A DNA stretch of 64,000 nt, taken from NCBI RefSeq assembly GCF_018977255.1, contig NW_024704743.1:78368001-78432000 (forward strand), given 5' to 3'. Within the stretch, counting starts at the first letter, position 1; each line of letters begins with the position of its first letter. Shown here in pieces: positions 18,437-55,035 of the stretch. Under the pieces are notes generated by a model. The model saw nothing but the letters and a program-made list of their open reading frames with translations, was not told the DNA's origin and ran no database searches. Position numbers and translations under genes: made by a program. Source of the DNA: Callorhinchus milii (Eukaryota).

Positions 18437-18633
18437 TTAATAACCCGGCCCTTTCAAGAGTCCTTGTTGAGCCTGAAGGGCAGCTGCATGAATTCCACAG
18501 TCTCTGGCTTCACAAATCCCAGGAATCCCTGGATTACCAGGCAATCCTAGCTGGCCAGGAGCCCCAGTGTACCCCACTGGGCCCCGTGGACCTGGCTTTC
18601 CTTCTTTGTCAACACCAGGATACCCAGGATACC
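18437..18633 (-). CDS. Collagen exon 29, end of COL1 and NC1 (...[30 protein letters not shown])
   Basis: Second imperfection (GVDKEG), C-x4-C FACIT signature, stop TAA. Confidence 0.95.
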
Positions 18634-21600: not shown

Positions 21601-24600
21601 CAATTACCGTTCTGACATTCAAATATAAAACATTATTATTTTATCTAATGAAGCAAAAGTGTGGCGCAGTCATTTTCTTTGTGTTTAATGGAATATGCTT
21701 AAAGAGAACAGAAAGTATGGCAAAGCAATTTCCAGTAAAGCAACTTCAATATCTCAATTCCAAATATTGTGCTGGTGTGATGAAATTACTGAGCAGCCCT
21801 GCTATTGATATCCACTCAAGGTGATAAGGTCTATTAACATGTGCAGGAAACTGTCTCAATCTCTCTTTGATCATTTTCAAATTTTGTCATCCTTTTTGGA
21901 ATGTTTGCTGCCTAAATGGAGTCCTGTAGCGTATTGGTTAGAGCATTCGCCTCGCAAGCAGGTTCAATTCGGAGACAAGGCGAAATATTAGGCAAGTTTC
22001 CTTACTCCACACGCCTCTGTTTACCTAGCAGTAAGTAGGAACCCGATTATTAGTCGATTGGCGGATCGCTTTCCCAGGGGTAATAATCCCTACGAAAATA
22101 AATAAAACATTTTTAAAAATTTAGTCAGTCAATCCACGACTGTTTTTGGAACACTGCTGTGTAGAATTGGTTGCCACGTTTCAGCCACAAAATATAGTCA
22201 AGTCACTTTACAAATGTAATTTTGCTGTTTTTGTTTATAGTATATTCTGTGAAGCGCTTTGAGACGTCTCAATGACGTGATAAGGCACTATATCAAATGC
22301 AACAGTTATTATTATTATTATCTCAACTGTTTCTCCTCAGTTTTCTCCAGTTCTTCATGTTCTTCAGAGGAAAATTTTTATTCAATTTCCATTACATTCA
22401 AATCATTTTTCTATTGCCTCTTCATATAGTATAACTTAATGAATCACAGGAATACAACAAACATATGGATAAACAAAGCCCTGCTGCCCTTTTGATCTCA
22501 TCCTTCCAGAATAGCCTTCCTACAATCTTGCTATTACCGCTTAAAGCTGATTCTTAAATAGTTCCAGTGGCCTCAATTGCCCTTCCTGGTATCTCATCCT
22601 GACTATTGATTGATCCACTGAAATACTTTCTGGGCTCTGTCCTAAAATCAGCTTCACAACCATTACCTTGTGTCCTTTTGTTCTACTACCTTGATGTATC
22701 TGACATTTTTGTTCTGGAAGTATAACCATGAATTATTTTAGTTGGTAAGAATTTATCTAGTTCCTTTTTGAAAACTTTTTATAGTTTCTTTTTCCACTAC
22801 CTATGCTGGTTGTTTTCTCTTCACTATCACATTTTTCTTTTTCTTAAAAAAAGGTATTTCTTCTGTTATGTTCTTATGCTCTCTTTTGCCCTTATTTTGA
22901 AGGTATGACTAATTTAATGTATGTCCTTTATTTCACTTATAGTCCAACTCTTAATACAGTCAAACTAGTTGCCAATGAATATTTTAACTGAAATGGGATT
23001 TCACTAAAAGGTGAATTATACTTGTTTTATATTCATAAATGCCCTTTGCATTTAAATAAAAAGTAACAGTGCCATGTATACAGTGTAGAAATATTCTTGT
23101 TAAATACTTAGGCAAGAGATTCTCCATTTATTAATAATAATCCGTGTTTTTGATGTGGTGCCTTTCATGTCTGGAGGATGTTTGAAAGCGCTTCAGAGGA
23201 TATCTTGTAAAGTGGCGTGACTGTATTTGTAGCCAAACACGGCAGCCAATTTGTGCAGCAAATTCCAAAAATAGCCATGAATTGAAAGACCAATTTTATT
23301 TTGGGAGATTGTTGGTCAGAACACCAGGAGAAATTCCCTTCTCTGCCACTGGATCTTTAATGCCCACCTCAACAGGCTGATGGGACCTCAATTTAATGTC
23401 TCATCTGAAGAATGGCACTTCCAGCATTGTAACTCGCTCTCCCCACCCCCAGCACTGCACTGGAGTATCAGCTTAGACTATGTGAGTTCAAAGACCCTGT
23501 CTTAGGTCTTAAACCTACAACATTCTGACTTAAAGGCTAGAGTGCTACCAACCGAGCCAGGCTGACACATATAGACTGACAAATAATGTAAATAATGTGC
23601 ATTATTTATTTTGTATCTAATGGAATTTGTTTCAAAAAATTACAAACCTGGCCTTCATCACCTATGTCACCTTCGTCACCCTACATAGAGGAAAAAAAAG
23701 AGATGACATGTGGGGATATTTGTGAAAAAACACTGGCATTTGATTCAAGACTGAAACATATGAATACCTGAGACCCTTGTTTGCCTTCTAAACCAACTTT
23801 GCCGGTCTCACCCTAGAAAAAGATTTGAATTGTAAATTAGCATTTTTACAAATAACAAATATCTTCACCTGATCTCAACTTACACAAAATAACAACAATA
23901 ATTTGTATTTATATAACGTCCTTCACACGGGTAGTGTCTCGGAGCGCTTAAATATGATTATGAAAGCTATATAATCATCCTTACATTTGACATAAAGTGC
24001 TCTGAGATGCTACCCTGCATAAGTGCAAGCTGTTGTTGTACAGTGCCTTTTACGTCAGAGAGACGTCCTAGATCGCTTCACAGGATATACTGAGAGCCAG
24101 TGGAGGGGATCGGTTGGGGACAAGGAAGGGGGTTCATGATACCCTAATCACTTTGACCTCAGTAAATTTCATTGAGTCTGACACGAAACAAAGGCAGAGA
24201 AATATTGGGAGGTGGCAGAAGGGTGGAGCTGCTCACAGATGGCACTTCTTATAGGCTTTGAGGTCACAATGTTAGTCGTCTGATGACCCCAGATCCCTCG
24301 GCTCAATTTAGCCAAGTCAGCCAAATCTGTTTCAGATTTCACGTTGCAACTACAAAGTCACAAAAGATATTGCTGTATATTTTGTGTGCATAGTTTAAAG
24401 GGCCCTCAAACGTGATCTGCCTTAGTGCTCCTGGATCCTGAATCTGGTGTGGAGTATGAATACAGGCAGAGTCTAGTTAGGCTAAATGGCCTGTTCCCGT
24501 GTGTAACTTTCTATGTAAAAAGCTTCAATTAAAAATAATTAAAATAAACATTTAGATAGTTGGGTGACATTTGCTGTACTTTAATTGAAATATTGATCCA

Positions 24601-27600
24601 AATGAGGCACAACAAGTGAATTAAAGAAGTACTGCATTCAGTGAAAAAAGTAATGGATAAACAGTTTTTGGGGATAACAGTCATGTGATATTTTTGTCCT
24701 TGTCATTGCACACTGCACACTAACAAAGGGTCACGTGTCATGTGAGTTTACAACTTCAGGTGGAAGGATTGCTTTCATTTGATAATAATATCATGAGACC
24801 TATATGTGTAATTTAACCTCACCTTAACCTTTCAATTTTATTGAGCCACTGAGACAGGAGCTTACAAAGAAGTGTACTGTGTAATTTCTTATATGGTTTC
24901 CCTTGTTGACCCGCTTATTGTATATTGCTGAAGAAATGCTCACCTTTTGACCATCGGGACCAGTTTCACCTTGTGGACCCTATTACAAAGCAAACACAAC
25001 GTGTAGTAAAATATATTTTTGGAAGTCAAGTTTACAAAAAAAACATTGGCATGGTTTTGTTGTGAAATCTACTCACAGGTAAACCTTTTATTCCTTGAGC
25101 ACCTGGCTTTCCTGGTATTCCAGGTTCCCCTGCATTGCCTTTAGGTCCCTGTAGTCAAACAAAAAAAAATGTGTGATTCTCAGACATTTCCCCGATAATC
25201 CCTCAAAAAAAATTTGGTCACTCAATGCACGACTGTTTGTGGTGTGCAATTAGCTGCCATGTTTCACCCACAACGTTAAGTCACTTTACAGTATATTCTT
25301 GAAGCGCTTTGAGTCATCTAGAAGACATGATAAGGCGCTATATCAAATACAAAGATTATTTAAAAGGGCCAATTGAGGTTAAGTTAAATCATATTTGAAA
25401 TAAAAAAACCTTTAAAAATGGCACTGTTTATCTAATTTATACAAATAATGATCCTTTCATTTGATACAATTCCTGATGGTGTCTTTCGCAGGGTTTTCTG
25501 TGAAGTGTAGTAACTGTATTTGTAGGTGATTGCGGCAGCAAATTTGCACACACCAATTTCCTACAACCAGCCACGAAGTGAATAGCTAATTTTATTTGGG
25601 AGATTCTTGACCAGGTGACCCTCCTCTTTTCAAATAGTGCCATGGTATCTCTAACATCTACCCCTGACAATGCAGCATTCTCCAAGTACTGCATTAATGT
25701 GTCATACTAGACTACGACTTCAAAGTCCCGATTTGGGGCCCACACTCTTCTGACACTGAAATTCCTACCATCTGAGTTACGCTGACACCGGTTCATACTT
25801 TTCAGTTGTTAGCTAAATATGACAGCTTTGAAAAATAAAAACATTTCAGAATTTATCTAATTCGGTTTTCAAACCAATCCTTAGCCTGGTACATCCTTCC
25901 CTTGTCTGTTTTTACACTGTGGAGCAATAAGATGCAAGATTACACTTGACATCTTCCATGCCCTTGTAGCAGGCACCAGAGACAATTGAAGAATAGGGTC
26001 TGCCAGGCCACTCTCTTCTACCTTCTTGTGGCCAGTTTCAGAACAACAAATAACAACAGAAGCCTGCAAACAAGTTGCCAACAATTCTCTTAGCCAGGGG
26101 TGCATTCATTTAAAAACAAAGTCTTCTTCTGGAAAGAAGTTAAAAAGAGTAGCAAGCATGGTGACTGTATTTTGCTGCTCCACCTCATCCTTGATGTCAC
26201 TCACCATCCTCCATTTTATATATAATATATATCTACATAATATATAAAATATATTATGTACTTTTTTGTCTATTATAATCTATTTTATAAGAAAGGAAAA
26301 GTTCAATTCACAGAATTCTTCATGATCTTCCAATGGGTAGATAGCATGCATGAAATTCTTATTTCGGTTTGGATACTCTTAACCATGGTGATAAGTTTCC
26401 ACCTGCATCAGACACCTGGCTGACAAGTAGTCAAGAGTAACCTTTCACTATCAAAACGCAAGGATATTGCGTTTGGAAAGAAGCAATCTGATCGGTGTTA
26501 AGATTTCACTTTTACAACATTATTCATTGAATTCAAGGTAAATAAACTTGAGTGACAGGCAACCCTGGGAGGAGTTCTCACAACTTTTTGGTTTGGTGCT
26601 CAATACGCTACTATTTGAGTGATCCACACTACATCTGCAGTTTTTTTAATAGGCTGATATCCCAGTCTCTGTAAGAGGGGAAAGAGATACTGGTGATAGT
26701 ACTCTTGAGATCAGAATGGTAAGCAAAATGATTCAAGAATTACTTTACAGAATTCCCTCAAAATATGTTTCTATTTCCTTCTGAAGATACTCTATAATGT
26801 ATTTTTGCTGTTGTTATTTCTCATTTACCCTATCTTTGTCAGTATGAGAAATAAAATAAATAGTAGCGACTTCATGTCATTTAACAGAACAGAAATTACA
26901 GAAGTGAAATTATTACTTCACCAAATACAAAGAGCAAGATCTCATATTTTTCTCCTCCCATGACCATTTCCCTTCTCTTGTGCATTTATAAAGAATCTTG
27001 GTTAGGGTTTTCTGATGTATTATAGATTGGGAGTGATTTTCTGAGCAATGTGGATCCTCTGGTTTCTTTATTTCATGGAAAATTAAGAAATGGTACATTA
27101 ATATAGTTCCCCTTCTGCTGAAATAATTGCAAGAGGGCTCTCCAATGAGAGTAAAATTTTTCATGTGACTTTCCACGTGTAGGTGGCATGCATACGTGAT
27201 ATTCTCAGTTTGGTTTGGATACTCCTAAGCAGGGTGATGCATTTCTGTATGTGTCAGACACCAGGCTGACCAAAATATACACTTCCAGAATACTGATTAC
27301 CTACTATCATCTTCCCATAATAGTAAACAGTTTCTTAAACAAGTCCAGCATTCTGGCCTCAACTACACTTCCTCCAGTTGTTAATTATCCTCTGTGTGAA
27401 CAATAATTTTGTGGTTTCTTCAAGCAGTTTATCACTGGACTCCCAAGTGTACGCATGAGTCACTGAATTTTATTTTGTCAGTCACTGCATAAAGAAATCA
27501 AGAAATGCATAGAATCAAGTCATTCCATTTCACTTCTGGGGGAGGCAGAAAGATGTCCTTCTCCATTTCATTCTGTTTGAGTTGTGCATCTTTCTGAAAT

Positions 27601-30600
27601 AATCTGAAAGCAAGATTGATGACAGTGAAGTCCAGAAACAGGACCATCCTAGCCTTCCACTAGAGCAGGGCAAGTGGAGGTGAAAGGTTTCCAGTAGAGT
27701 ACACATACAGTTACAAAATAAATATGGTAGAAACCAAACTTGTGGAGGAGTTCATGACCCATTCGCACTCCTCTGTGAAATGATCCTGCATAATGGGGGA
27801 TGAATATAAAATTGGAAAATTATTTCATAAATGAATGTAAAAGCTACATTTTCTCTTCCAGCTCAGTAACTTAAATTGGAAAATAACAAGAAACTTACTT
27901 GCAAACCACGCAGCCCTTGTGGCCCTCTTGGCCCTGGGTCCCCTCTGTTTCCCTACATAGGTATTAACATAATATTAATATTTACATGGTTAAATAGAAG
28001 CCATCCTTCATTAGGTAAATTATTCACATGCATGGTCTAAGAGTAACAATGAATTAATAGCATAACAAATTAGTGTGGAATAAAAAGTACCTTTGCTCCT
28101 ATTTGTCCTGTTTCACCTGCTAAACCTGGAACTCCCAGTAGACCCTGAAGTCAGATCACATAATATGTTTTGAACACTTTCCATCAGAACTTTCTTTGTA
28201 ACAAAAGATGATAAAATGATTTAAAACATTTTACTTAATTAATTTCAATTTACATCTTTGCCTGGCTCCCCATCTATACCAGAGATTCCACTGAGTCCAA
28301 CAGCACCCTGAAGGGAAGAGAGATCTAAAATTAGATTTAAATCCACAATATACAACTATTAATGATAACAGTAAAGAAATGTCTGTTTGATTTCACCTTT
28401 CTGCCCTGTGGTCCCCTCTGTCCTATTAATCCTGGATATCCCTTCAACAGGAATGGGAAATAAAAGACAAACAGTAAAATGATGTTGCATTTACCAATAA
28501 AATTAATGTCATAAGAGACACATCACCAATGATAGCACACAATAAAATCTAATATATACACTCACCACAACTATGGTCCAAAACTGCTATTGCTAATCCA
28601 TAGTTCATTGTCTAAAATCCTACTACTAAATAGTTAATAATCAATAAGAAAGTAATACATTCTGCATACAAATTAACCCCATAGTTTTTCTTTAATATCC
28701 TTGAGAGGCCACAAGTAAAATCATTGTTTAGCTTATTTTCATATGGCAATATGTCTAGTGTTAGAGGGATGAATTCTAGGATTGACTGAACAAGCTAAGG
28801 TTATTCAGCTTTGAAACTAAACATCTCAGAGAAGATGTTCTAGGGGTACATAAGATGCTAAAAGGATATAAATAAATATAAAATAATAAATCCAATACTT
28901 TCAGATATACCAAAAAATACATATAATAATAATTTGGTCACTCAATCCACGACTATGTGTGGACACTGCTGTGTGCAAATGGCTGCCATGTTTCGCCAAA
29001 ATATACAGTCAATTCACTTTACAGTATATTCTGTGAAGGGCTTTGAGACATCTCAAAGATATGATAAGGCACTATGTCAACTGGAAGGATTATTATTATT
29101 ATTACTACCAAGCAATAATAACTTGCATTTATTTAGCACCTTTCAAATAATAGATCAACTTAAAGTGCTTGAAGCAGCAATAAAAGAGGCCATAAGCTTC
29201 GGGTTATGAAGGTTAATTTTGGAATCAATACATTTCTGTACACAGACGGCATTCAAAAGCTGAAATGGTGGGGATGGGAGTTTATTCCAAGACAATGTAG
29301 TGATTTAAGACATGGCGTGATGCCAAAATGGGAAGACAGTAGAATTGGTACTCTGGCAAAAGATGAAAGTAGAGATGGGCCAAACCAGCATCTACATCCA
29401 AGCCTTCCTTATAATTTTCCAATGTTTTTGTTTTAAAACAAAATCACATTATTAACTTCTTCAGGAAAATTAATATCTTCAGATAATTAACATTTTGAAC
29501 TAAATCTATCATAAGAAACCAGCCTGAACTCTGCAAACGTACCATATAGCCGTGGTCTCCTGCATCTCCTGAGAATCCAAGCTCACCAGGGAAGCCCTGT
29601 CATATTCGCATATACATAGAAAAGATAATAATCCAGTGTGAACAATTATTTTGTGCAGATTGCATTATTAAGAATCCTGTTCAAACATTAAGCAGAACAA
29701 TAATAAATACGTAGTAAACCTTTGGTCCCATGGCACCAGGAGATCCAATTGCACCTGGTTTGCCTCGAGAGCCCTGTTATAAAGAGCAAATAAAATTGAT
29801 TTAATCATGGCAATGTCTTCTTACTGCCCACAGCAATAAGTGAAAACTGTGGAGTTTTTAATAAGTAAACATAGTAACTTTTTATTTTCGCCTGCAGCTG
29901 TTGTTGATTATCGGCCACTCGCTCCCCGAAGAAACACTTACCTTTTCACCCGAGGGACCGGGTCTGCCTTCTTCACCAACTATTCCGATATCACCCTGAG
30001 AATAAATGCAACATTTATTGCAATCTGTCTGAAACATTGCAACATCAAGACACAGCAATAAAATAGTGCACACTGGAATACTTACATTTTCACCTTTGGA
30101 TCCTGGTTCCCCTCGTGGGCCTGGAAGTCCAACTGAACCCTACAGTTAGGAGTTGTTAAAATGATTATCTGAACGTAGTACACAGTTCACTGTTTAAATT
30201 TTGGTTGTGGATGACAGACTCACAAGCAAGACTTGAGGCAGGGATTCTTCCACTGCAAACACAAAGCTTTAATGGGTAGAATGGCTCTAACTGGACAAAC
30301 AGTAGGACACTTTGTCAAAGTGAAAATTGTTCTCTGCTCTTCCCAAAATAACTCTCTTATAGATCACATGCAGGACTACTTTTAAAACAAAAGCCAATTT
30401 ATTTTATTAATAATAATAATCCTTGCATTTTATGTAAGGAGAATGTCAGGAGAATGTCTCAAAGCACTTCACAGGATTTGTTGTAAAATTTGTTTTGTAA
30501 AGTGGAGTGACTGTGTTTTGTAGGCTAACCAACAGCGAATTTATGCACAGCAGTGTTCCACAAATAGCCATGAAGTGAATAACCAATTTTATTCGTGTGA

Positions 30601-33600
30601 TTTTCACTAAAAGATTACTATTAAAGCAAACCTAAGAATATTTGAAGTTTTGTGCCTGATCTGTCTCAATCTAGTTAGGAAGTTTGAAAACTATTGCGCT
30701 TACATAACAATTTGCAAGATAATAATAATAATAATAATCCTTGCATTTGATATAGCGCTTTTCACGTCGGGAGGACGTCCCAAAGCGCTTCACAGAAGAC
30801 ACTGTAAAGTGAATTGACTGTATATTTGTGGGCGAACGCGGCAGCTAATTGCGCACAGCAATGTCCCACAAACAGTCGTAGATTGAAAATGACCAATTTA
30901 ATTATTGTTTTTTTTGGAGGGATTATTATTAGGCTCTGTGTGGAGTAAGGAAACTTGCCCAAGGTTTCGCTCTGCCTGGAATTGAACTCAGGTCTCTCAC
31001 TTGCAAAGCGAGTGCTCTAACCACTGAGCTACAGGACTCCACAAAGATAATGGCAAGTACGCTGTTTGTGCAAGACTTTACATAAAATTACATAGAATAT
31101 TTCAGCGCAGACACAGGCCATTGGCCCAAGTAATCCAGGCCAGTGTTTATACACCACATGAGCCTCCAACCCTCTTAATTGCCTTTTCCATATCCATTCC
31201 CTTCATGCATGTGACTTTAGAGGTGCTTATGTTCATATCTTTACATTCATTAAGTTACTTCAAACTGGAAGGAACAGTGGGGATTTTGCAAAAAATGAAC
31301 TAGTTCATGCAACTGTACTTTCAATTACTTAATATTTCTTAACATAAAGTTGACTTAGTTTTATCTGAAAACATACATCGTTTGAACACACTACAAAAGA
31401 CATTCAGGTTGGTGGCAACAATTGGAAGGATAAGAACAGTATTTAATTCCTGCAAATTTGTTTTCTTGTCTTTTTAACAATATATACATAAACCATTTAG
31501 ATAATTGAGGTTCTTCACTGAATATCTTAAAAGATTCCCAAAAAAGACAAACTGTCTTTTTAATCCTTTCAGGGCATAAAATATATACCAAATAAACTGG
31601 TGAATGGGTTTAATTTGTCTGCCTCCTGTATTGTTGAAGAGATTACAACAGCTTCTTCCCCACCATCTTAAATGAAATGCATTTTAAAGGAAATTAGAGA
31701 CAACGTCGTTTGAGGGAGTTTATTTGAAATTATGTAAATGGATAAATTGAGCTTTGGGGGGGGGGGGGTGAGAGTTAACAATGAATCTGTACTAACTGAA
31801 ACACGCAGAACACCTGACTTTTGGCAGTGACTGGTCAACTTTCCATGCTAAAAATGGCTAGCTTCTGGGTTGTCAGGTCACTGCCGACATCACTTCCTGT
31901 GCATTGAACAAGCAGAGAGCGTCGTGATGTAATTTCCTGCTTGTGCACAGACACACTATGTGCAGGAAATGATATCAGCAACTACCTAGTGACCCAGAAA
32001 CTGCCAATGTGGTGAATAACCAAATAATCTGGAGAATTGTTGAGCAAAATATTGGGATAAGCCTTTTATCTTTTTGAATAATATCACCATATTTTTAATA
32101 TCCACCTGAAGAACAGGCATTTAGGAACTCTGGTTAACTCAGTAATGTTTCACAAACAGTTGCTATTCTCATGAGTGAATATATTTAGCAAATTTCACCG
32201 CTGTTCCTGGCCTAGTCCATTCACTCTTAAAACCAGTATTTAAGTCAACAGTTATCGGTGCAAAATCACATCTCATCTTCACCCATAAGTCAGTTCCTTT
32301 TAAGAAACAATGATTTCCAAATCAAGTCTAAATTTAAGAATTTTCCACAATTCTGCGCAACCTTACATTTTAAAACAAAATGTTTTTACAAGATACATGA
32401 GATTCGGGCTTTATGTACTCACGAAATTACAAGATTAAATGTCAGGAAATTATCTCAGTAGTCTCCAGGCTACACTTAGCAAATGAAAATTATTGATGCA
32501 GGGTTGCAGAGTTTATCCCAACCACAAGTAACCCTTCACTACTTATTCAGGAATCTTTCAGACTATCTTCAGTCTTTGAATACAGTGCACATACCCACTG
32601 TTCCACATTATGTATACTCTATAAATCCATTGGTGAGAAGAAGATGAATTGATACAAAGTATATGTACATGAGGTGTAGATTCTCTTATCCATTTGCAAA
32701 CTTCAGTTTATGCACAAAAAATTTGCTGTACCTTTTGCCCAGGTTCTCCAGCAACACCATTCTCTCCAGGGAGACCAGGGAGTCCCTGGGATGCAAAGCA
32801 ATCTTAGTTTAAGTGTTTCACACATTAGAAATAGTAAAGCATTCTTCAAGGATTTTAAATATCTTTCAGCAAAGGTGGGTTCATACTTACTATGGCTCCT
32901 GAGTAACCAGGATCCCCTTCAGATCCTTCTATTCCTTCCTCGCCCTAAGAAAAGCATAATAAAATAAACCTATTGTATATTGCAGAAATACATGTGCTGT
33001 AAACATAATAAATATGAACTAACAAATTATTCCTTGCTTTTAGATAATAAATGCTCAATTTAATCAAGTTTCACTAACATCAGTTCACAACAATGCTACT
33101 TTCCAAATCTTATTAATGCGCCATTTATACAGTATATTTGGCAACAAATCACTTCCAAACATTTAAGCGTGAAGGCACATAGGCTGTTCCAATCATACTG
33201 GAGCACTGCTCCCAACAACACGTTGTAAAAATGGTTTCAGAAGCAGCACGGTTCACACTTGCACAGTATAAATGTGGTGGGTGTAACTCACACCGGATTT
33301 ACTCTGCCATGTTCCATTCCTAGCCTTGAACAATTCATCAGCTTTGAAATGACTTATTTTTAATGCTATTAAAGAGCTGGTTGTGCTAAAATCTCTATGC
33401 TCACAACATTAAAATTATATTATTGGGTATTTCTGACACCTCAGGACAAACCTGGCTTCTTTCTTTCCATTGCTGCACTGCAGTATTTGTCCTGAGTTAA
33501 ATGCAGAATTAATATCAACATCTAAATAAAAAGGATAAGGAAGATAATAAATAATAAAAATTAAGGAAAGTGTCTAAAGACAAAGTCGAGAAGAAGCACA

Positions 33601-36600
33601 GAAAAGAAAGGGAAGAGACAGGGAATTGAAGATTGTTTTCACTTTGAGTGTCTTTGTCTTTAGGTCTTTTACGTTTCACTATTTATCATCTTCCTTTGTT
33701 CCTTTATTTATACATTCATAATTTTCCCTTTTTATTGATACAAATTTCTGTAAATCTCTGGAATCAATAATAAAATACTAGTTTGTCATTAAAATAATCC
33801 AAATTCAGGTTTAAAATCTATTTATAGATTGGTAGTTCTCTGTGGTACGATATATAGAGATTTGCTCAACACAGTGATACACAGACTGATAATTTCTGGT
33901 GCAAAAACCATAGAATGCAATCGCTATAATAAACCTAGAAAGATCAACTCAACTGGTATCTAACTAATCTCTACAGAGAAGTTATTGTTATAGGAATGAA
34001 AATGAGCAAATCTAATTAAGTATTAAATATTTAATAACTGATAACAAATAGTTTAGTTTTATTACATTATAACAAAATAAACTGTATTAGTGGTAATGAA
34101 AACACAACTCCTAAATTCCAGTTAACCTAAAAAGTGTAAATCCTTTCAGGTCACAAATAGATGAGGAATCCTCCCTGGAAGTTTTTAACTTCTGACAAAT
34201 AGTATCTAACTGCACATATCAGACACGTAATGTGCGCATTCTATATATGGATATATATGTAATATATCTATTGTTAATGAAACTTACCCTTTCCCCTTGA
34301 TCACCCCTTCTCCCCTGGGCACCTTTAAAACCTTGGTAACCCTACAACAAAATAAATTCATTTAGGGTTTGCTTCAAACATGTATATATAGGTGGCATTT
34401 CCCTCATTTGAGTGAGCTCATGGAGAAGACCGTACTTGCGAATAGCATAACACTAAGCCACAGAAACCATAAGGTTGGATTCCTTGCACTGTGCTGAAGT
34501 GCCTGATCTAACCAGCTCTGATGCCCATTCCCATTTTCCAGTGCTACTTGCTGGAAAATAGATGCAAAAGAATAGAAATTGGATTATTTGCAAGAAATTG
34601 GATTATATTCAATTCCACAGAACCATCAACAGATGGACTTTCAGCTATTCTGCTCTGGCTCTCGCTAGTCTTGCCCCCTCTCTCCCCTTTTTCTAGTCCC
34701 GCCTGAAAACCTTCCTCTTCGACCATGCATACGGCCACCTCCCCCCCCCAACCCCCATGCCCCACCTCTCCCCCCGGCTCAGAGTCAGGCTCCACCACTG
34801 TTAAGTGCTCTGAGATGCTACCCTGCGTCAAGGGCGCTATATAAGTGTAACTTTTTGTTGTAGAAACAGGAGTAGGCCTTCAGCCCCTGGAACCCATTCC
34901 ACCATTTTATAAGATCTTGGCTGGTCAGTACACCAAGTCCAATTACCTGCCCTTACCCCTTATCCCTTAATACTCTGACCTAACATGATGTGGTTTTACA
35001 TACCTTTCTGCCCTGAGGTCCAGGAAATCCATTGGTACCTTCCTCACCTTCATAACCCTATAACAAAGACATATACCTCAATACGTCAGACAAAAGCATT
35101 ATTGATTTGTGCATACCAACTCCGGAAAGATTCTTCAAGTGGTGGAAGTATATTACCTTTGAACCAGGGAAACCGGGGAAACCAGACATAGCAGCCACAC
35201 AGTCACATTCTGCTGAGGCGGTTTCAATTCCTAGAGCGTCACACTGCATTGAATAACAATTAATGAATCAAACGATCCAAAACGAAACAAAAGCAAATTG
35301 CATTTATATAGTGCCTTTCATGTCAGGAGCACATCCCAAGGTGCTGAATTATAGAATTTTTTTTTCAAGATTTTTATTTCTGTGAAAGTTCAAAAACAAT
35401 TATGAAATGTAAAAGAACATTTCGCCATGAAATATATAATAGGGTTAGCAACAATTAGCAACAAGCGGAATTAATAGCAACTCCATGTCCCAAACTAGGG
35501 TACCCTGCTGGTATAATGAAGTGTATCACAGTCAGAGCAGATTATCCGTCAGTGGGCACGACACACTTACATTTATCAGCCAGATCCTTCATTTATTACT
35601 TGTGGCTGCAATATTAACAATTCCTGTTATGAATTGCCATAATAGAACCCAATCCCTCTGTACTACTATGTGTTCCAACGTTGTTATGGAGAGTCATGCA
35701 ATGATGTGTGCAGGTCTGATTCCAGCCTTCTCCCCTCTACACTGAGTTCTTGATCTCAACTAGACTGGTGCAAAAGGCACCTTGCAAAGGCTATGATACA
35801 CATCTTGCACAGGTGAGAAATAATCTGATCGATGCTCTTTTCTGGGTGAATCTCGCATGCCTCCTAGTAGTTGTTCAAGAGCATGCTTGGCAGTAGCAGG
35901 AGAACAGCAGTCAGTCTTAGATGCTACAACAACAATAACTTGCACAATATAGTGCCCTCCAAGACGGCTGGGGTCTCAGAGAGCTTAGCGATGGTGGAGC
36001 CCAAGGCTGAGCCTGGGGGAAGGGGACCGAAGGTGCAGTCAAAAAGGAAGGTCTTCAGGTGCGACCTGAAGATGGGGAAGGAAGGGGCAAGGCAAAGGGG
36101 TTGAGGGGGGGAGTTCCAAGGTTTCGGGGCGTAGTAGCTGAAGGCATGGCCACCGATGGTGGAGCGGAGGATTCGGGGAACTCGGAGGAGACGTGGAGTT
36201 TGGCAAGGACTGGAGTAATCGGGCTACGAAGTTGGTGCGAATGAAAATGCGGGCGGCAGAGTTTTGAATGAGCTGGATTTTGTGAATAGTGGAGGAGAGG
36301 AGACCAGCGAGGAGGGCATTAGAGTAGTCCATCCAAGAGGTGAAAAAGGCGGGTGGACAAGGGTTTCGGCAGCTTTTGGGGTAAGGTATTGTCAGAGATG
36401 GGCAATGTGGCGGAGGTGGAAGAAAGCAGTGCTGGTCAGGGACCAGATGTGGGGGAGGAAGGATAACTGTGGATCGAACCTGATGCCTAAGTTGCGCAGA
36501 GGTTCAGAGAGTATTAAAGATAGGTCGGGTAGGTTGAGGAGGTCGGAACCATGGGACGGAAGACGTCGGCGGGAGCCAAAGAGTATGGCTTCCGTCTTGT

Positions 36601-39600
36601 TGACGTTCAACTGCAGGAAATTTGCGCTCATCCAGTTCCTGATGTCCGACAGACAAGCTCATGACAGAAACTAATTCAGGTAAAAAGAGAGCAGTAAATC
36701 CTCCAAAAAAAAGGTGCAATTCATGAAGAAATTAAAAGAAAATTAAAGCAAATGTTAGTCTCTTATTCTAATAAATAATAACTTGCATTGATATAAGGAA
36801 ACACAACAAATGGGAAAGAAAATATATAATAGGAAGATTTTCCTTTCTCAGGCATTTTGCACAGTACTTACAATTCCTGGAATTTCACAGCACCTTTCAT
36901 CAGCTGCTTTATTTGGATTACTATAAATCTTGAACTGTTGTAGATCCACCTGAAGCAGAAACAATATTGTAGGGTGAATGGAGGTACATTTCAGTGGGTT
37001 AGTGAACTATTGCTTCAAATCAAGGTTTCATATCCAGACCAAACTGATGGCATGAAAATCTCCTCTCCCAGACATCTGTGAATCAAATGGTTATGGCCAG
37101 TCTCAATCTGGCTCTTTGTGAGTGTGAAAACTAAAGAAGAAGCTGTTTTATTGATTCATTGCACTGTTATTATCATTAAATTTGTCATTTCACACATTTC
37201 CTCCAATGCCACTCAGCTCTCTAGGATGTTACCCTGATGGAGGTTGTGAGCTAAAATAATGTCACCTCTACATTTACATTATATTACTGCAGACCCACCT
37301 GATTTTCTGAGGCATCTCCCCCAAGCAGACCCTGCTTACTTCTCCTCAAGAGGGGGCATTTTTGATATGATACAAATTTTGTCAGGCTCCAAAGAATAAA
37401 GGGTTGAGTGGAAACAGTAAGAATCCTACCCCTTGCTGAACCAACCGAGCTACCAGAATAGCTCTCCTATATATTTAACAGTTAATAAAATGAATAGACT
37501 TCATATACGGAAAAAGACTTACTAGTAGTGTAGAATCAGCCTTTGCTGCTGTAGCTAGAGAGGTAAATCCATCAGTAGTAATAGATCCATACTGTCTAAT
37601 GGGGGCTGTGCCAACCTGCTGACAGTCAACAAGCAAAGTTAACTGGTTCCTTTTGGCGCTTAATGACAGCTTGTGCCAGGCCCCATCAAACAGCTGTCCT
37701 ATGTTCTCAAAGATGGTGATCTCCTCTCCCACAGCTGCCACATTGTAGACTTCAACTGCATTCGTCTCTCCATACAGGCGAAGTCGGAGCTGCTCATCCC
37801 CGTTTCTATCGGTCACTTCCCATAGATTCCACACCATCTCAGGAGTGTCTTCTCTCATTCTGAAGGTCGAGACCAATGAGAATTCTTTGGGGAATCCATA
37901 TGGATGAACAAATCTGTAAAATGTAAATAATATTTTTGCTGAACAATTGAAAACATATTTTAAAGGTGAATGTGAAGCTTTTTCAAACTTGTCAATGAAA
38001 TAATAAATTCCATTCTGGTGGCACACTGATATGGCACTATACAAATGTAATTTGTTGTTGTCTCATACCTCCCACTCCTCCCCTCTTCCTGTCACTCTAC
38101 GTACTGCCTCATACCTGGTCCCATTGCTCTACCCGCTGCCTCATACCTCCCGTTCTGCCTCTCTTTATGTTGCTCTTCACGTTGCTTCATGCCTCATACC
38201 AATCTCTTGAGAGGCAGCATGGAGAGCGACAGGAAGAGAGCCAGAGTGGGAAGCATGAAGCAGCTTAGAGAGCAACAAGAAAGTGGCTTCACTAATGACA
38301 TCCCGCCCAGCAACCACAATTGTAAACCCTGGCTTGGCCCCTGGATGAGAATGCAGGATTTGGTGCGGGTGAGGGTACAGCCAGTGGAGTTTTGTATTAG
38401 CTGGATTTAGGAATATATTTAAAAAGTCTAGTCAGGAGATAACAAAGACATGAATGAGGGTTTCTACAGATTTGATGTGAGATAGGATAAAGATGGATAA
38501 TGCAGAGGTTGAAGAAATGTAGTATTGGTTTGGGAATGAATGTCAGCTGAAGATCAAACTGAATATCAATGTTGCACACTCGTTTGTTGAGTTTGAAGGA
38601 AGCCAAGGAGGTCAAACCTGGAGGTGAGAAGGCAAATGATGGAAATACAGAGATCTGTTCTCTTTTTTGTGGAAATTACAGTCCAACTGTAGTTGCTAAG
38701 TCGATGTTTCCAGTTTCATTATACATTTTCTCAACAGCACCAAGCATTGTACCATCATTGTTCTCATGGCAGTAATAAAATGAGCTCAACGTTTTTGCTT
38801 CTAGTTAAAAAGGTGTGTGTTCAAACTCTATGTTGAAGCTTGATGGCTCCTAATGCTGATAGGCACTCCAGTGCAATGTTGGTGCAACACAATAGTGTAA
38901 GCGGTGCCATCCTTTCGATAAGATGTTAAACCAGGGTCACATCTGTTGTTCAAGTGTATGTTAAAAATCCCAGAATATTATTCAAAATGAGAAGGATGTT
39001 TCTCCCAATGTTCTGGTCGACAATCCTTCAGATAAATTGTTCATTCCCTTCACAGGGACCTTGCTTTGTTTAAAATGGCTCCTGGATTATCTACAAACAC
39101 ATGGTAACTACATTTCACAGGAATTCACCATGGAGTGTGATGTCTTGCCAGGCTGTATAAAATACAAGAATTATTAAAATGTTGCTCCTGATTTCTTGTA
39201 AGCAATGTATGCATTTTAAGTAGGTAATTGGGAAACACTCATCTTAAAAACTGGTAAATAAAATAATGTTAGTGAATGTTGGAAACTAAACATTGGAGAA
39301 TGTGCTGTGCACTAAATCCTGTGAAGTCTTTCTGATATAAGAGGTCCTATGCTAAATAGAAGGGAATGAATAAAAAAAGCAAACACACTATATTACAAAT
39401 CTCTCAACCTTTAAATGATAGCCCTTTCATACATCACATACCTTGTTTCTTTCCCAATCTGTATACTTCTTTCTAGGCGATAGGCTGTTAGGCCTATTTT
39501 GGATCCTTCCACTACATTAATTCCTGGTATGCTCAATATTTTTAATGTATCTAGCACATCAGTAACTGGAACAGAGGGTAAATGTGTCTATTAACAAAAT

Positions 39601-42600
39601 CACGATTCTCTTTTAAATTCCATCAACCAGTATTTTAATGTAAACAAAATTGACAGATGGATATTATTTAGTACTCTGAGTATATCACTGTGCGCAATTG
39701 CCTACCGCACTTCATCCACAAAATGTGCAGTTAATTCACTTTACAGTATATTCTGTGAAGCGCTTTGATACACCTCAAACATTATATGCCGCTACATCAA
39801 ATGCAAGGATAATTATTATTATTATATTGAAATATCAGGCAGAACACAGCTTATAGTTAGGAAATGCACAATTGTTATGGAAGGTCTTGATTTTGGATGT
39901 CTAAATCCTTTGATGGCTGCAAGGTTATTTCAGTTTTTAAAGACAGTCTTAAAATATAACATAATAACATCTATTATAAATAACAAAAAAAATCTTAATA
40001 TAGTCTGTTCTGGGAATAAAAGATAATTCAATATTTTAAATGCATCATTCACTGTTCTAATCAGCATTTTCTGGTACTGAACAGTGAACAATGTCTGCAA
40101 TGAGCAATGGGCAGTACTTACAGGCTGTGAGCAAGAAGCTGTTGCAAATTCAAATGAAAACTAACAAAAAAAAGCAACAATCATAATGATCAGTTAAAAA
40201 TATGATATATGAGTGACGATGATGCAATGAGCTAAGTGTTAATGGTGAGTATGAATGAATGATAATACAGTGTATCGCTTTTAAGGTGAAAGTGAACTCG
40301 GTTTTCTTTTACTGTAAACTTTAAATAGTTTACTCACAAATACAATCCTCTGGCAAGTGTTCTGAACCACATGTTGCTGTGCTATGAAGAAATCCAGCTT
40401 GGAACATTGCACCTGGACAGCTCCAATCCTGCAGTGTATTTTAGGTAAGGTGATATCTCAGTGAACTGACTGCACATGGATCAGTTTTCGCTTTGTAATG
40501 TTTGACAGAATTGTGCCTCACAATACGTGTTTTTATATATAAATATATGGAAATATTATAATATATAGAAATAAACGGTTCTAATTTTGAAATTCCATAT
40601 TTATGTATTTTTTAGGTTAGAAATGTGTTTGCTTTTCCTGAGTACTGTGAATGTTCAGTTTCAAGTCCTTTGGGGCTTATTTAACTTTCTGATTATCAAT
40701 AAATTACTACCTCTTCCCATCTAATGTTGGCATTTAAAAACACATTTTGTGTTTTTTTTCATATTTTGACATTATTCCATCCAAAACAAGAGTTCAGTTG
40801 TCCTTAGGGATTTTCCACAGCAGTTTGTCAGGACCAACAGGAGAATGTATCAGATTCATCACCTATTCCTGCAATATTCACAAGTCTTTTGTAATCCTAG
40901 GAACTTCAGAATGTTTGAACATTGTTGTTAGAGTTGAAACTGTCAGAAATAATTTGTGATCGAACTGATTGTGGCAATGTGCCCTTCAATGTGAATCCTG
41001 GGTTTTAGTAAAGTAGTTCAAATCAATGTGTAAAGGCATATTGTTCCAAATTTTTCAAAGAACAAAAAATTATAGGTTCAAAGGTTTTTAAAATCAGGTG
41101 TAAATGTTTATGTTTCCACACAAGCAAGTATAGAGCATCACTGGCAATTTAAAATGAACATTAGTCTTAATTGATGAGAAAAATCAAAGGGTTGAAATTC
41201 AACCATTAAGTCTCTACTACAATTATTTAATCAGTTTAACATTCCAGATGTTGTTCAATGGTGGTCATCTATTCTGAATTGGTCTTAAATAAGTTTCAAT
41301 GTTAGCTCAAGAATAGTTTAAATATGAAGTGCATTTTCTTTTCGATGTGCCAAACAGATTTGAGCATTAAGAAATATATCTTCACTCCTCCTGAAGAGTA
41401 GCAAAGAGAAGATGGTGTAGAAGAGCAATGTGTTGATGGTCATGTATGTTGAACTGCATAATGATGAGGGGCCCATGGGTTCCTAAACCAAGTCATATTA
41501 TCACAAGGCAAGGTGAGCATTGGTGAAGTGTCAAAATTTGGTGGGTGGGTTTGTCTTGGGCTTTTCTTGATAGGCCTAGCAATTGGATCAAGAGGCAACT
41601 GGTAGTGCACGACTCACAGATTATCCATCTGTCTCTTAATGAGAATGGTGTGTGGCACAAGACACAAAGTCAAATAAAATTACCAAAGGGAGAACAGAAG
41701 AGAAACATGGGATCATTGAAATTATGCCTTTCTCCTGCTCCTTGTCCCTCCATATCTAAAAGCTGTTGATTACAGAACACATTAAAATATTAGGCGACTG
41801 AATTATTTTCGGCTGCAAGGTGTGTTTGGTTTGAAGACCAAGGTTCATTCCAACGCTTCCTTCTTCATTTTACTAACGCAAACACATATTTTCTGTTTTA
41901 TTGCATGCACTGGTGGCAGCCCCTGTCAGCCTTGTCACGTACCTTCCTTCTGTCCCACATCAGGGACTGGCAGCAACTCCTCCTCCACCTGCGGCATTTC
42001 TCTGGAATAGCTGAATGGGAATATTCTTGTGCTGGTGATGACCTCTTTGGCAGTAGTATAAGAAACTGTCGGGGTAGTGTAAGGATAGCCTTTATTTGTG
42101 CTCATCTCTACCGCGGGCCCAGTGGAACCAGTTTCTGAAATGTCTGGATATCCAGAAGCGATGGCGTAAACGTCATCAGGATCTGGTACTAACATTTCAG
42201 GATAAAGTCCTGATCCACTTTCAGTAATATCTGGGATATGTGTTGCTGTGATTACAAAGTCATCGCCAGACATTTCTTCCTCAAAGGGAACGCTTCCTGA
42301 CTCGATGAATTCTGATGGCTCTCTGTGTAAGTCTCCAGCTACTGACCCTTCAAAGGCATGCTTGTCACCATCTCCTAAAGGAAAAATAGTTAACTTCAGC
42401 AGCAACCTTGAGTAAAGCTGGGTTTGAGGAGTTACAGGGCATTTAATGAGGATATTTAAAATGGAGTTCAACCAGAGGCAACTGTATTGAGGCCGGAAGT
42501 CTCAGGAACTTCACCCCGATGGTTTGTTAAAGTGTGAAAGGCCAAGAGAGTTCATGCTGGCCACTGTTCACTCCAACAATACAAATTAAGCAGATAGTGA

Positions 42601-45600
42601 TTATAACTGAATTAGCCTAGTACTCTACATACAAAGGTGACGATTTGGGTGGCAACATTGCCTGCCAGGGGAAGCGCTGTGTAAAGCTTCACTGCCGATA
42701 TGCAGTAGTGATTTTCAATTGATGCAACAGGCTGGGATTCAAATGCAATAGCTCTTGTGTTCCTAGTAGCGGTCTAGCATAAGTGCTAGCAACTCATGCG
42801 ATGTTACTCCAATCTGTGAGTCCTGTAAAAGGCTGGCAGGCCGGATTCCAGGATTACAGAATATAGGCTCTGGTAATGAGTAGGTTAATCTTATCCAATC
42901 CAATGGTCTTTATGGTTTTGGATTGACTGCACGTAGTCCAGAAGCAAGAGATGAGGCTTCTCTGCAGTCCAAACAGCAATGTAATATTCCATTACAGAAT
43001 AATCTTTGTACAACATTGATGCCAAAGGAGACCAGCAACATTAAGGTTTCTCAAAATCTCCAACTTTTCTGTCTGTTTTTCCAGTTGTCATTTTCAATAA
43101 ACGTTTAACATATTCACACAGCCTCTAATGGTTTACCAATTGTCCACATTTTGATTTAGATACTTGTTTTTACTCCAAGTTTGAATATTATGAATATTAC
43201 ATTGGTCATTATATTAAAGATTTCAGTACCAAACTATACCTCATATTTTTATAGTAATCTCAAAGAAAAATAACTGCATGATGACCTACTACTGTGACAA
43301 TAAATCCCTTCAGCTATCAATCTAAACCTGCAGGACACAAATCTAATGATATTTGGCATTAGAAAAATCCCCTTTTTATCCTTACCACATTCCACTCCCA
43401 TCTGTATGATTTTGCTCAAACGTTTTAAAAATATATTTTAAAAATAGAAAACATACTCAGTAATATGTTTTTGATAGGAAAAATGTTAATGAAGGATCTA
43501 ATTATTCATAAGATCTACACATCACTTTCAAAATATATTACATCTTCTGTCATTTCTCTAACTTCTATTACGCAGGAAGCTGTTTGATATAGACAAACAG
43601 AATAAATGTTTCCCTTGAAATTCACATGTATTATCAGGATGTTTGCACTGTGGACTGGTTAGTTATGAGAAGCCCAGCCAACCCAAGACAGCAATCTAAA
43701 ATGAGCGTAAAAGCATTTCTGAATTATACTGTACAGGATATGTGGGTGTACTTGTGAATTTTTCACAAGTTCAGCTCAATGGAAAGAAATGAGAAAATGA
43801 GATGTTGAAAAATAAATGAACACAGACAACCTCAGTACTGTACCACAAAAATCTTCAACATTGACCATCTACCAGAGAATGCCTTCAGGCAGACTGCAAG
43901 TATTTTTCCACCATCTGTCTTCCAGTTTCTTAATGGACCAATATGATGCAACAGTCTTGATGTTAAGCAATATGTGTGTTTGATATAGACTGAGCTAGAA
44001 ACTTAATAAAATTATAAAACAATATCTCCTACAATAAACTGCAAAACATCAGAAAAATATCATTAAATATAATGCAAAACACTTTCTATGCATTTAACAT
44101 GCTCTATATTATCTCCACGTGATCATAAAACAAATATCAATACATTTGTTATAGCTTTACCTGATTTAGCAAAATAGAAAACATTTAGAGAAAATCTGGA
44201 AATTGGGCTGTTAGTTGCATGCTGCAGGCATTAAATTGAACACAGTTAAATTTAAGTACTTAAAATCTTTAGGCTTAATATTTAAATCAATTGTTTTGTA
44301 ACCACCTAATTGTGACATTAGCAGAAAGATAAATTCCGTCATTCGCCTCCACATGCATTTGAGTGGAAAACAAAGGTATCATTGATATTAGGAAGACAGG
44401 GTTGTCAAAAGTAGCCACATTTCTGCAAAATAGATCACCAAAATAGTGTGTTAATGCTTTATATGTGTTAGATAATAAAAATCTTTCAGGTTTCAGACAT
44501 GGAAAAGTTGCCCCAGTAATGATTGGGTATGTGCTCAGGTGATCAATCTCAAGTGATTTCGAATTACTATATTTTAATAGAAATAAAATGTAATTCCAGG
44601 GAACAATAAAAACAAATAGGACACATAAGAGAAACAACGAACTTTAAATTAATTGATAATAAATGTAAGCTGTTCAATCTTTACTCACCAGAAACATAGC
44701 CGGAATACTCTTCACAACTAACATGAAGTGAATGCAGAACAATGAGGAAATAAATAATTAGACACAGTTCACGTATCCTCCCAGGTATGGTAAAAATCTG
44801 CAAGTTTGGGTTAAAAACGATATAAGAATTAGATAATTGGTTTGACACACTAAATTATAATATTGTGCTTCCATCTCTGGGACATGGTTGCATTTTGTAA
44901 TTTGCCCAACTTCCACAAGCCTGGTCAGTGAATCATCCAGCCTTTCTTTCAATCTAGCATGACTACATTCAATTATAATATTGAAATCAACTGATCAATA
45001 ATATATCTTAGTTAATGACAACGAATCAAACAGCTTCTTTGAAGGGTGTCTGGATAATATGGATGAAATAATAACCATTGGCAATCAACAAGGCGCTGAA
45101 CAAACAGTTGGTTCAAAAACATCCATAATTTACGTGTTCAGCACATATATCTTTTGTGTGTAATTGAATGGATTGGCATAATTGATCACAATTACAGGTG
45201 TTTTGTATTGTTTTAAGATAAAGGAAGAGCTAGGTTTGAGATTGATTCTTGCACAAATTTTCTTTTAAAGAGCAAAGTGCTCTTCCATCCTCAAGTCATT
45301 TGTGAACTAATCATTTTCTCTATTGACGAGAGATATTTTAATTATACATTTCTTGATGCCAGATTGAGAATTATTACAGTTGTAAATTATTTATCATCAT
45401 AAAAACCTTTTTTTAAACCTATGAATAATATGAAATCCTACATTACTGAGTTTCTTAAGGGATGCAACAGAAAGAAAATTGTGAAATTCTTCCTGACTAT
45501 GAATGCAATCAAGTGAAGCTGAGGACAGCAATCTAACATTATTCAATCTATTGCATTTGACAGGTAGCATTCCTTTGCTCAGCAGTGGATCAAAGTGTAG

Positions 45601-52449: not shown

Positions 52450-53238
52450 TTTGTGGTCAGGCAAGTGTCTGACACATGCATAAACCTAGCGCCAAGCTTA
52501 GGAGCATTCAAACCAAGTATGAGTTCTACGCATGCCACCTACAGATGGAAATCCCCGGGTTTGGAGTGGAATATTCCCCAGAAGACTCACCCTGCTTACC
52601 CAGTTCTGGAGAGTATTTGGTTCAGGTTGGCAAGAGCCAAGGCTTGGGGACCCCAGTGTGGTTGGGGTCTGCTGCAGTTTAACCAGCTAAAACTGTATAG
52701 CTTGCCATTGAAAACAATGTCCTGCTTGGCCAGCTGGGATACCTGTTAGGGCTTTGGCTTGCAGGGTTAACAGGAAGAGTTGAAAAAATCCCTGCCCCAA
52801 ATCCCTCTCCAGGTCCTGCCAATGTCCAGCAATGGCTGGTCTGCCTTCAACAAAAACAAAATTACATTTATACAGCACCTTTCATGTCAGAAAGATGTCC
52901 CAAGGAGCTGACATTCAGCGGTGCCCTGGAATACTGCAGACCCCACTGACTCAAGAACCAGATTACTAAGATTGCCACAGAGGACTGATCCAATTCCAAT
53001 GCCAAACACATTATCTTGGAGCTAGTTCAGCGCAGTTTGACCTCTCACTAGGTGAGAGGCAAATACCAGGAATTCCCTGAGAGCATAAAGGTGAACAGGA
53101 AAACTCAGCATGAAATGCATTGGAGTGTTCCATTATTTTCCTGCCCACAGCTCAGATACGCATCCCTACCTATTAAGCAAGTTGCACCAGTTAGAAGTAC
53201 AGCAACTCCACACACCAATCAAGGTGGATTCCAAGCCC
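52450..53238 (-). repeat. Unclassified interspersed repeat, copy B (upstream of collagen exon 1), with a short L2-tail insert
   Basis: Inverted relative to 46092-46885. Confidence 0.75.
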
Positions 53239-53261
53239 TAGATATAAACTTGTAAACCCAT

Positions 53262-53577
53262 AATAATAATAATAATCCTTGCAGTTGATATAGCGCTTTT
53301 CACGTCTTCTAGACGTCTCAAAGTGCTTCACAGAATACACTGTAAAGTGAATTGACTGTACATTTGTGGGCGAACGCAGCAGCCAATTGCGCACAGCAGT
53401 GTCCCACAAACAGTCGTAGATTGAAAATGACCAATTTATTATTGTTTTTTGGAGGGATTATTATTAGGCTCTGTGTGGAGTAAGGATACTTGCCCACAGT
53501 TTCGCCCTCTGCCTGGAATTGAACTCAGGTCTCTCACTTGCAAAGCGAGTGCTCTAACCACTGAGCTACAGGACTCC
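53262..53577 (-). mobile_element. Young tRNA-headed SINE
   Basis: Full head, body and (TTA)n tail. Confidence 0.9.
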
Positions 53578-54310
53578 ACAATATATGAAATATAGTGAAG
53601 ATTCTTAAATCAAAATAGATAGTTGGTTCAAACCGAGGCAGTCAAATATTGGAAGGTAAAAACAAAGGCGAGTGCAGCAAAAAGTAGGGATAGAAAAATA
53701 CTGTAATTATCCCTCTAACATAATAGTGTGTTTAATGCAAGAGCAGCTTATCTTAATAATAATCCTTGCATTTGATATGACACTTTTCACATCTGCTCGA
53801 CTTCTCAAAGCACTTCACAGAATAGACTGTAAAGTGAATTGACTGTATATTTGTGAGCAAAATGCAGCAACCAATTGCGCACAGCAGTGTCCCACAAACA
53901 GTCATGGATTGAAATGACCAATTTATTATGTTTGCTTTTTGAGATTACAGTACATATGTAGTTAAAAGGTCAATCTCTGAATGGAATGCAATACATCTAC
54001 AAGCTACTGCAATGCAGATAATGAACATTCATGTTCATCTCAAATGAAGACACAATTTCCTTTTTTCGGGTCACAAACTTAACATTTATGTTTTCTGCTA
54101 ATGCTCGTGTTTAAACCAAACCATTCAAAATCTGTGTCAGTTTTTATCCTCATGCAAAATTTATGGTTCAACTAGTGGCTCAGGGAGAGGGGAGGCAATG
54201 ACAAAACCACAAACCAGTAGAAATACTATTAAGAACTAAAGGAATTACAATATGATAGCCAGAAGCAATAATATCAAGGTCCTCAGATGAGGCAACAGAG
54301 AATAAGAATG

Positions 54311-54980: not shown

Positions 54981-55035
54981 TCATTTCCGTCGTTTATGAC
55001 TGTGATTCCGATCTTCATCTCGAGAGTGATGCTTC
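54981..55035 (-). CDS. SNRNP48: SNRNP48 last coding exon ([17 protein letters not shown])
   Basis: tttcag acceptor; HSHKRRK conserved; TGA stop. Confidence 0.9.

Follow-up and report, generated by a model that had tools for sequence, protein, structure and literature searches.

A FACIT-type collagen gene of Callorhinchus milii with an acidic Ser-Gly segment as a likely glycosaminoglycan-attachment domain

What is an acidic, Ser-Gly-rich segment doing at the N-terminus of a FACIT-type collagen, and did it take the place of a vWA domain there? The question is raised by a gene in a 64,000-nucleotide stretch of the genome of the cartilaginous fish Callorhinchus milii (NCBI RefSeq assembly GCF_018977255.1, contig NW_024704743.1, positions 78,368,001 to 78,432,000), referred to as the window; coordinates given without a contig are window positions, and the exons and sites of the gene all lie on the minus strand. 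The gene has 28 exons and encodes about 918 aa in the order signal peptide, acidic segment, TSPN, COL2, NC2, COL1 and NC1. We consider it probable that this is a conserved, spliced FACIT-type collagen whose acidic tip is likely a glycosaminoglycan (GAG) attachment domain with two to three sites per chain; the gene probably lost its vWA domain early in jawed-vertebrate history, beside a segment that already existed.

The segment is encoded by exon 3 (41943..42374), which is 432 nt long and of symmetric phase 1-1, as had been claimed for it, with AG/GT flanks, an open frame and an acidic Ser/Gly/Thr/Pro-rich product; it is present as a single copy in the genome. Upstream of it, exon 2 (44689..44797; 109 nt, phase 0-1) encodes the signal peptide, called by eye from hydrophobicity and homologue alignment, together with Ser-Gly site 32 and the serine of site 36. 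The mature N-terminal segment comprises 152 aa with a net charge of -23, and its composition points to disorder. It holds seven Ser-Gly dipeptides, at model residues 32, 36, 62, 72, 89, 91 and 110 (plus 7 in the full protein), against 1.58 expected by shuffling, and a count of seven was reached in none of 3000 shuffles. At least three Asp or Glu residues lie within six residues of each site. The original prediction of seven Ser-Gly dipeptides in acidic context after the signal peptide is therefore upheld, and the internal repeat and Thr-rich stretch described with it are both real: the repeat has an ungapped score of 44, a value as high being found in 1 of 500 shuffles and lower ones in the other 499. 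Asp and Glu make up a fraction of 0.19 of the segment, compared with 0.07-0.15 in the corresponding region of a paralogous gene, and Ser and Thr about 20%, while exon 3 contains no cysteine and no Pfam match. Conserved Ser-Gly in acidic context, the sequence criterion for a proteoglycan core protein, is present here. A passage of a review of chondroitin sulfate glycoproteomics describes Ser-Gly with a nearby acidic cluster as the typical context of xylosylation and chondroitin sulfate attachment (PMC8418075).

Homologues were collected by a search with the TSPN exon, which gave 21 proteins (sharks, skate, coelacanth, turtles, caecilian and frogs), by a profile search that added sturgeon, stingrays, crocodilians and gecko, and by a wider search with alignment A2, confined to proteins longer than 964 aa, that added one orthologue. 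Including lamprey, the gene is thus kept in lamprey, sharks, rays, chimaera, sturgeon, coelacanth, amphibians (Xenopus among them), turtles, crocodilians and gecko. No mammal, bird or teleost orthologue stood among the named rows (the best 150 of 459 representative matches, with 20 looked up), which does not by itself prove loss. For site-by-site comparison, P0004 was dropped as a duplicate of P0003, leaving an alignment of 20 homologues, seven from cartilaginous fish and 13 from lobe-finned vertebrates. Mean column identity in this alignment is 33% in the segment versus 60% in TSPN. Against this divergent background, site 72 (42265..42270; SGDD) is the best conserved, with Ser in 20 of 20 and Ser-Gly in 18 of 20 homologues; site 110 (42151..42156) is Ser-Gly in 18 of 20, its alignment crossing gaps in tetrapods, and site 36 is kept in 15 of 20. 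Site 62 (42295..42300) is found in all seven cartilaginous fish and in none of the 13 lobe-finned vertebrates, site 91 in six of the seven and in none of the others, site 32 in nine of 20 and site 89 in none, so that the SGSG doublet is, as far as the alignment goes, partly lineage-specific. The expectation that Ser-Gly would be kept despite divergent flanks is therefore borne out for sites 36, 72 and 110; the other four are less widely kept.

Counts across all dipeptides give the same picture. A level of 75% of the 20 homologues or more is reached by three of the seven Ser-Gly dipeptides, versus two of 144 others, both of which overlap Ser-Gly sites. Ser-Gly is in excess (p<0.05) in 17 of 21 sequences, with a total of 83 versus 21 expected; in the control, the low-complexity segment of the paralogue, no excess was seen in any of seven proteins (0-2 versus 0.7-2.5 expected). 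Three alignment modes gave nearly the same Ser-Gly counts in a 19-homologue set, from which six species were dropped for lack of an anchor. Because only three sites are conserved from sharks to turtles, the likely load is predicted to be two to three GAG chains per polypeptide; seven, as implied originally, is an overstatement.

Splicing of exon 3 into the gene was one of the points on which the prediction had been staked beforehand. In RNA-like contigs of runs X3 and X5, exon 3 is spliced to exon 4 and the latter to exon 5, both of them TSPN exons, at the predicted GT-AG ends, and contigs of X3 also contain the joint between exons 5 and 6. This evidence derives from a single sample, and that the runs are RNA is a guess, none being on record as such; X1 covers introns and behaves like DNA, and X4 is without any joint. 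Two records continue beyond the exon 3 acceptor for 119 and 106 letters, lengths in keeping with the 109 nt of exon 2. At window position 39465, within exon 4, A is replaced by T in all three listed runs with depth (X1, X3 and X5), likely an allele or assembly difference.

Skipping of exon 3 would, as proposed, keep the reading frame and drop most Ser-Gly sites: its removal from the model leaves 768 codons with one terminal stop, and takes away six of the seven sites, site 36 included, since it spans the junction of exons 2 and 3. The 24 entries listed, out of 114, include no loose end at the acceptor of exon 4, in a compared stretch that excluded exon 2 and in which an exon 2-4 joint could not appear. 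In sea lamprey (Petromyzon), database isoform X2 lacks, in frame, a 74-residue acidic segment between signal peptide and vWA, and with it all three Ser-Gly dipeptides (P0183 versus P0184). As a database model, this isoform fits the skipping idea in the lamprey orthologue.

The segment had also been said to replace the vWA domain. The gene model indeed contains no vWA, the window holds no vWA relic (best tblastn E 1.2), and the VWA Pfam domain was found in none of the 21 homologues; for three of these, the Pfam matches are Collagen and Laminin_G alone. Two kinds of remnant were considered and rejected: the Ser-Gly exon as a decayed vWA exon, which resembles none of three vWA exons (best E 3.0), and a relic in the introns, where the best match has E 1.2. 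Literal replacement is not supported, since both a paralogue and a lamprey orthologue carry a segment and a vWA domain. The paralogue, called A (P0022; C3:7156782-7186447), starts with a signal exon and an 825-nt Ser/Thr/Pro-rich exon of phase 1-1 that encodes 275 mucin-like residues; next come an intact vWA exon, for which two phase-1 donors are possible (7161359 and 7161413), and TSPN. The Ser-Gly exon thus sits in the slot of the mucin-like exon, with the vWA exon as an extra one in the paralogue. Eight paralogue models from sharks and rays lack vWA, which suggests either a second, independent loss or an annotation gap.

In lampreys, a protein cluster represented by P0124 (Lethenteron, Lampetra and Petromyzon) has a signal peptide, an acidic segment with three Ser-Gly dipeptides, vWA and TSPN, and an overlapping model, P0127, supplies the C-terminus of the same gene. 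In a tree of TSPN plus NC2-NC1, P0127 groups with the Ser-Gly gene and Petromyzon P0060 with the paralogue (support 98/96); a single clade of the two lamprey genes is rejected (p-AU 0.029), and NC2-NC1 identities of 31-39% versus 22-27% support the placement. Both lamprey genes carry a vWA of the paralogue type, with 63% and 55% identity versus 38-43% to the COL21-type vWA. Best-hit sorting had put P0115, P0124, P0159 and the unrelated P0164 under the gene on narrow margins, and the tree covered the lamprey gene among these. Hagfish P0115, P0159 and P0196 are vWA-TSPN collagens near the gene pair, without an acidic segment. Because segment and vWA coexist in the paralogue and in the lamprey orthologue, vWA was likely lost beside an older segment rather than swapped for it: the ancestor probably had both, and the gene probably lost its symmetric vWA exon before the split of chimaera and bony fish.

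Several points weigh against this reading of segment and history. Four of the seven Ser-Gly sites (32, 62, 89 and 91) are not widely kept, and four of the 21 sequences have no significant Ser-Gly excess. Aligners favour pairing Ser-Gly with Ser-Gly in low-complexity sequence, site 110 needs gaps to align and is missing in coelacanth, and the counts are not independent, because the 20 homologues are related and include ten frog rows. Motifs alone are ambiguous and do not identify proteoglycans, according to a passage of the same review (PMC8418075). The lamprey tree has 14 rows and no outgroup, and the paralogue vWA exon and lamprey isoforms are database models without an RNA check here. Finally, homology of the segments is a matter of position, because none shows significant sequence similarity: the paralogue mucin exon gives a best E of 2.6, and the lamprey segment none better than 0.38.

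The net charge of -23 would also suit a polyanionic, tyrosine-sulfated domain that mimics heparin and makes little use of its Ser-Gly dipeptides, an explanation that we regard as improbable. The N-termini of fibromodulin and osteoadherin are tyrosine-sulfated protein mimics of heparin, tetrapod homologues of the present gene have 10-16 Tyr per 111-127 aa, of which 4-9 have at least three acidic neighbours, and Tyr stands before or after several Ser-Gly sites. However, just two of nine Tyr in the window segment, and neither of two in skate, are in acidic context, and the best conserved columns are the Ser and Gly of the dipeptides, not Tyr; sulfation of Tyr and GAG attachment can moreover coexist. 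Distinctly improbable, in our estimate, is a spacer with mucin-type O-GalNAc and no GAG, which would keep the tip extended, as seems to be the role of the paralogue exon in the same slot. That exon is about 30% Ser plus Thr without Ser-Gly excess, the better conserved columns include the Pro/Thr stretch of the window segment (P138-T139, Y135), and the lack of Cys and Pfam matches in exon 3 would agree with a spacer. Yet Ser plus Thr is lower here and the acidic fraction higher than in the paralogue, and O-GalNAc fails to explain the conservation of Ser-Gly, because it needs no Gly after Ser.

The idea that a COL21/22-like gene received a new Ser-Gly exon in place of its vWA exon, with chains on all seven sites, is largely refuted and very improbable. 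Ser-Gly and vWA exons do share phase 1-1 and a position between signal and TSPN exons, no vWA relic remains in the gene, and positional homology of the low-complexity segments lacks the backing of sequence similarity; but an acidic or low-complexity segment coexists with vWA in the chimaera paralogue and lamprey orthologue, the gene falls outside the COL21-like clade with its TSPN split differently, and four of the seven sites are poorly conserved. A conserved FACIT with a GAG-bearing tip and a vWA lost beside it accordingly remains the favoured explanation.

The gene model was fitted as 27 exons from 44797 to 18437, all with AG-GT boundaries, giving 911 residues and a single terminal stop. 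Coding exon 1 (51672-51652; 21 nt, seven codons, phase 0 donor) was placed from homologue starts: it is one of 14 ATG-donor candidates, picked by its match to the sevengill-shark and sturgeon homologue starts, and lies outside the RNA evidence. The coding start so placed falls beyond the range described originally. Exon 4 (39442..39565, phase 1-2) is the first TSPN exon, exon 5 (37523..37913, phase 2-0) the main, laminin-G-like one, and exons 6-7 (35157..36949) contain the TSPN end, a Cys-rich linker and the COL2 start. The best PDB match of TSPN is collagen IX alpha1 NC4 (E 4e-25). Exons 8-24 (21407..35057) encode COL2, whose 112 unbroken Gly-X-Y triplets begin in the last part of exon 7 and run into the first part of exon 25. 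Exon 25 (20241..20417) encodes NC2, 41 residues with three Cys between COL2 and COL1, and the COL1 start; exons 26-28 (18437..19841) encode COL1, Cys-x4-Cys, NC1 and the stop. COL1 consists of 20+6+10 triplets with two Gly-X-Y imperfections, and Cys887 and Cys892 form the Cys-x4-Cys at the COL1/NC1 junction, followed by a 24-residue tail. FACIT hallmarks are a TSPN before the collagenous part, a short NC2, a COL1 with two imperfections, Cys-x4-Cys and a short NC1. Judged by sequence, the layout is that of a FACIT, with TSPN, NC2, the COL1 imperfections and Cys-x4-Cys all in place.

Known collagens resemble the gene in part. Collagen IX, a FACIT and part-time proteoglycan, has three collagenous domains, and the GAG site of alpha2(IX) is a single Ser in NC3; GAG chains are also carried by collagen XII. 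As in the two COL9A1-like genes of the genome, the TSPN, closest to alpha1 NC4, is largely encoded by a single large exon. Unlike collagen IX, the gene has two collagenous domains (COL2 and COL1) and no NC3, and it places its candidate GAG sites at the N-terminal tip instead of the NC3 hinge. Identity with COL9A1 was rejected on the two collagenous domains, on the p-AU of 0.015 for a clade with COL9A1-like sequences, and on the two other COL9A1-like genes in the genome. Collagens XXI and XXII share the order TSPN-COL2-NC2-COL1-NC1, the domain lengths of collagen XXI are similar, and a COL21-like gene lies directly downstream of both the gene and its paralogue; the gene differs in lacking vWA, in its TSPN exon boundaries and in its clade, and the vWA of the paralogue and lamprey genes is of another type than that of COL21-like genes. 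A COL21A1 with its vWA swapped out was rejected, there being separate COL21-like genes (C3:7.22 Mb and C2:78.36 Mb) in another clade and with another TSPN split.

Among TSPN collagens, XV and XVIII bear chondroitin or heparan sulfate, as the gene is predicted to, with three Ser-Gly sites in XVIII (PMC4859157). These multiplexins differ from the gene, which has no endostatin and no many-times interrupted helix but two COL domains, a FACIT C-terminus and a 24-residue NC1. Its candidate sites precede TSPN, whereas those of multiplexins follow it. The long form of collagen XII, a FACIT with a very large FN3/vWA N-terminus whose GAG-bearing part is removed by alternative splicing, is the closest working analogue of the skipping idea; here a single small low-complexity exon would be involved, in a separate TSPN clade. 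The paralogue differs in its mucin-like, not Ser-Gly-rich, N-terminal exon and in the presence of vWA in chimaera.

From TSPN on, the paralogue matches the gene exon for exon, including exons of 45, 72, 36, 45, 33, 147, 177, 91 and 78 nt, has the same COL1 register and is the only other NC2 match in the genome. In a 40-row TSPN tree it is the sister clade (support 96/94), while COL21-like, COL22-like and COL12/14/20-type rows form separate clades; the genome's other collagens are named here from sequence and position. Homologues of the gene bear borrowed database labels ('collagen IX-like', 'XXII-like' and 'uncharacterized'), behind which the gene is a distinct collagen lineage. The paralogue is named zmp:0000000760 in a salmon UniRef entry. 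A section of PMC10793473 calls zebrafish zmp:0000000760 previously uncharacterised and places its expression in notochord together with that of col2a1a, col9a2 and col11a2, a hint at tissue by way of the shared name; in an excerpt of PMC6212880 the symbol is merely listed. No paper describing the gene itself was found among the full-text papers listed, which take in few subscription papers and no supplements.

The gene and its paralogue also share their neighbourhood. Desmoplakin and SNRNP48 lie upstream of the gene; on its downstream side are a COL21-like gene with vWA and TSPN and a gene of the BMP5/6/7 class. Contig C3 repeats this order with a GAR-domain plakin, the paralogous collagen, and again a COL21-like and a BMP5/6/7-class gene. 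The gene is thus one of a paralogue pair in a plakin-[gene]-COL21-like-BMP5/6/7 class order on two chromosomes. A fused sturgeon model links the paralogue, COL21 and BMP, and another appears to link SNRNP48 to the Ser-Gly collagen gene. Within the window, 55000-58500 (minus strand) contains the 3' exons of SNRNP48 (U11/U12 48K protein), one of which matches PDB 8r7n (E 4e-18), and the last of them end about 3 kb before the first coding exon of the collagen. The downstream COL21-like gene (C2:78354000-78363134, minus strand), 5 kb past the low end of the window, has a vWA exon and COL21-type TSPN exons; it is paralogous to the C3 COL21-like gene (7.22 Mb) and has a long tree branch. At C2:2939552-2942000, a COL22-like gene faces a second COL9A1-like TSPN gene, an arrangement that mirrors the COL9A1-like/COL19-like pair on C3. 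A third pair of plakin-GAR and TGF-beta-family genes, 27 kb apart, is found at C10:12917267-12944144, with no TSPN or vWA among the matches listed between them, and is possibly a paralogon copy that lost its collagens. Introns and flanks within the window contain LINE-like reverse-transcriptase fragments and tRNA-like SINE copies (836-1694, 48633-49499, 36660-35990 and many 200-300 nt copies, e.g. 53200-54620), called by eye from open reading frame lists and sequence, and a tandem repeat lies at about 3300-4400.

If the segment does act in GAG attachment, xylosyltransferase would prime the conserved serines (36, 72 and 110), on which chondroitin/dermatan sulfate would be built. By analogy with other FACITs, NC2 would trimerise the chains, COL1/NC1 would lie on a fibrillar collagen fibril, and COL2 would hold TSPN and the sugar-bearing tip off its surface, where GAG chains may add fixed charge, hydration and spacing. 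Skipping of exon 3 in frame would give a putative form nearly free of sugar chains. A bolder proposal, which we think unlikely, is that of an ancient collagen type outside the 28 named: a multi-chain proteoglycan FACIT with up to nine chains at its homotrimer tip, switched between coated and bare forms by one-exon skipping since the lamprey split, which shed vWA in jawed vertebrates and later disappeared from the mammalian lineage. Together with the mucin-tipped paralogue, it would make up a missing class of fibril-surface regulators in the notochord and cartilage of non-mammalian vertebrates.

Collagens with several GAG chains are already known in XV and XVIII. The paralogue pair is a clean case of vWA loss by symmetric exon deletion, apparently more than once. 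Its presence in Xenopus makes the gene directly accessible to knockout and glycan tests. Should GAG chains be attached, the gene would add a collagen-proteoglycan design in which the chains stand at the tip of the FACIT arm, and would be a candidate for fibril spacing and hydration in non-mammalian cartilage or notochord.

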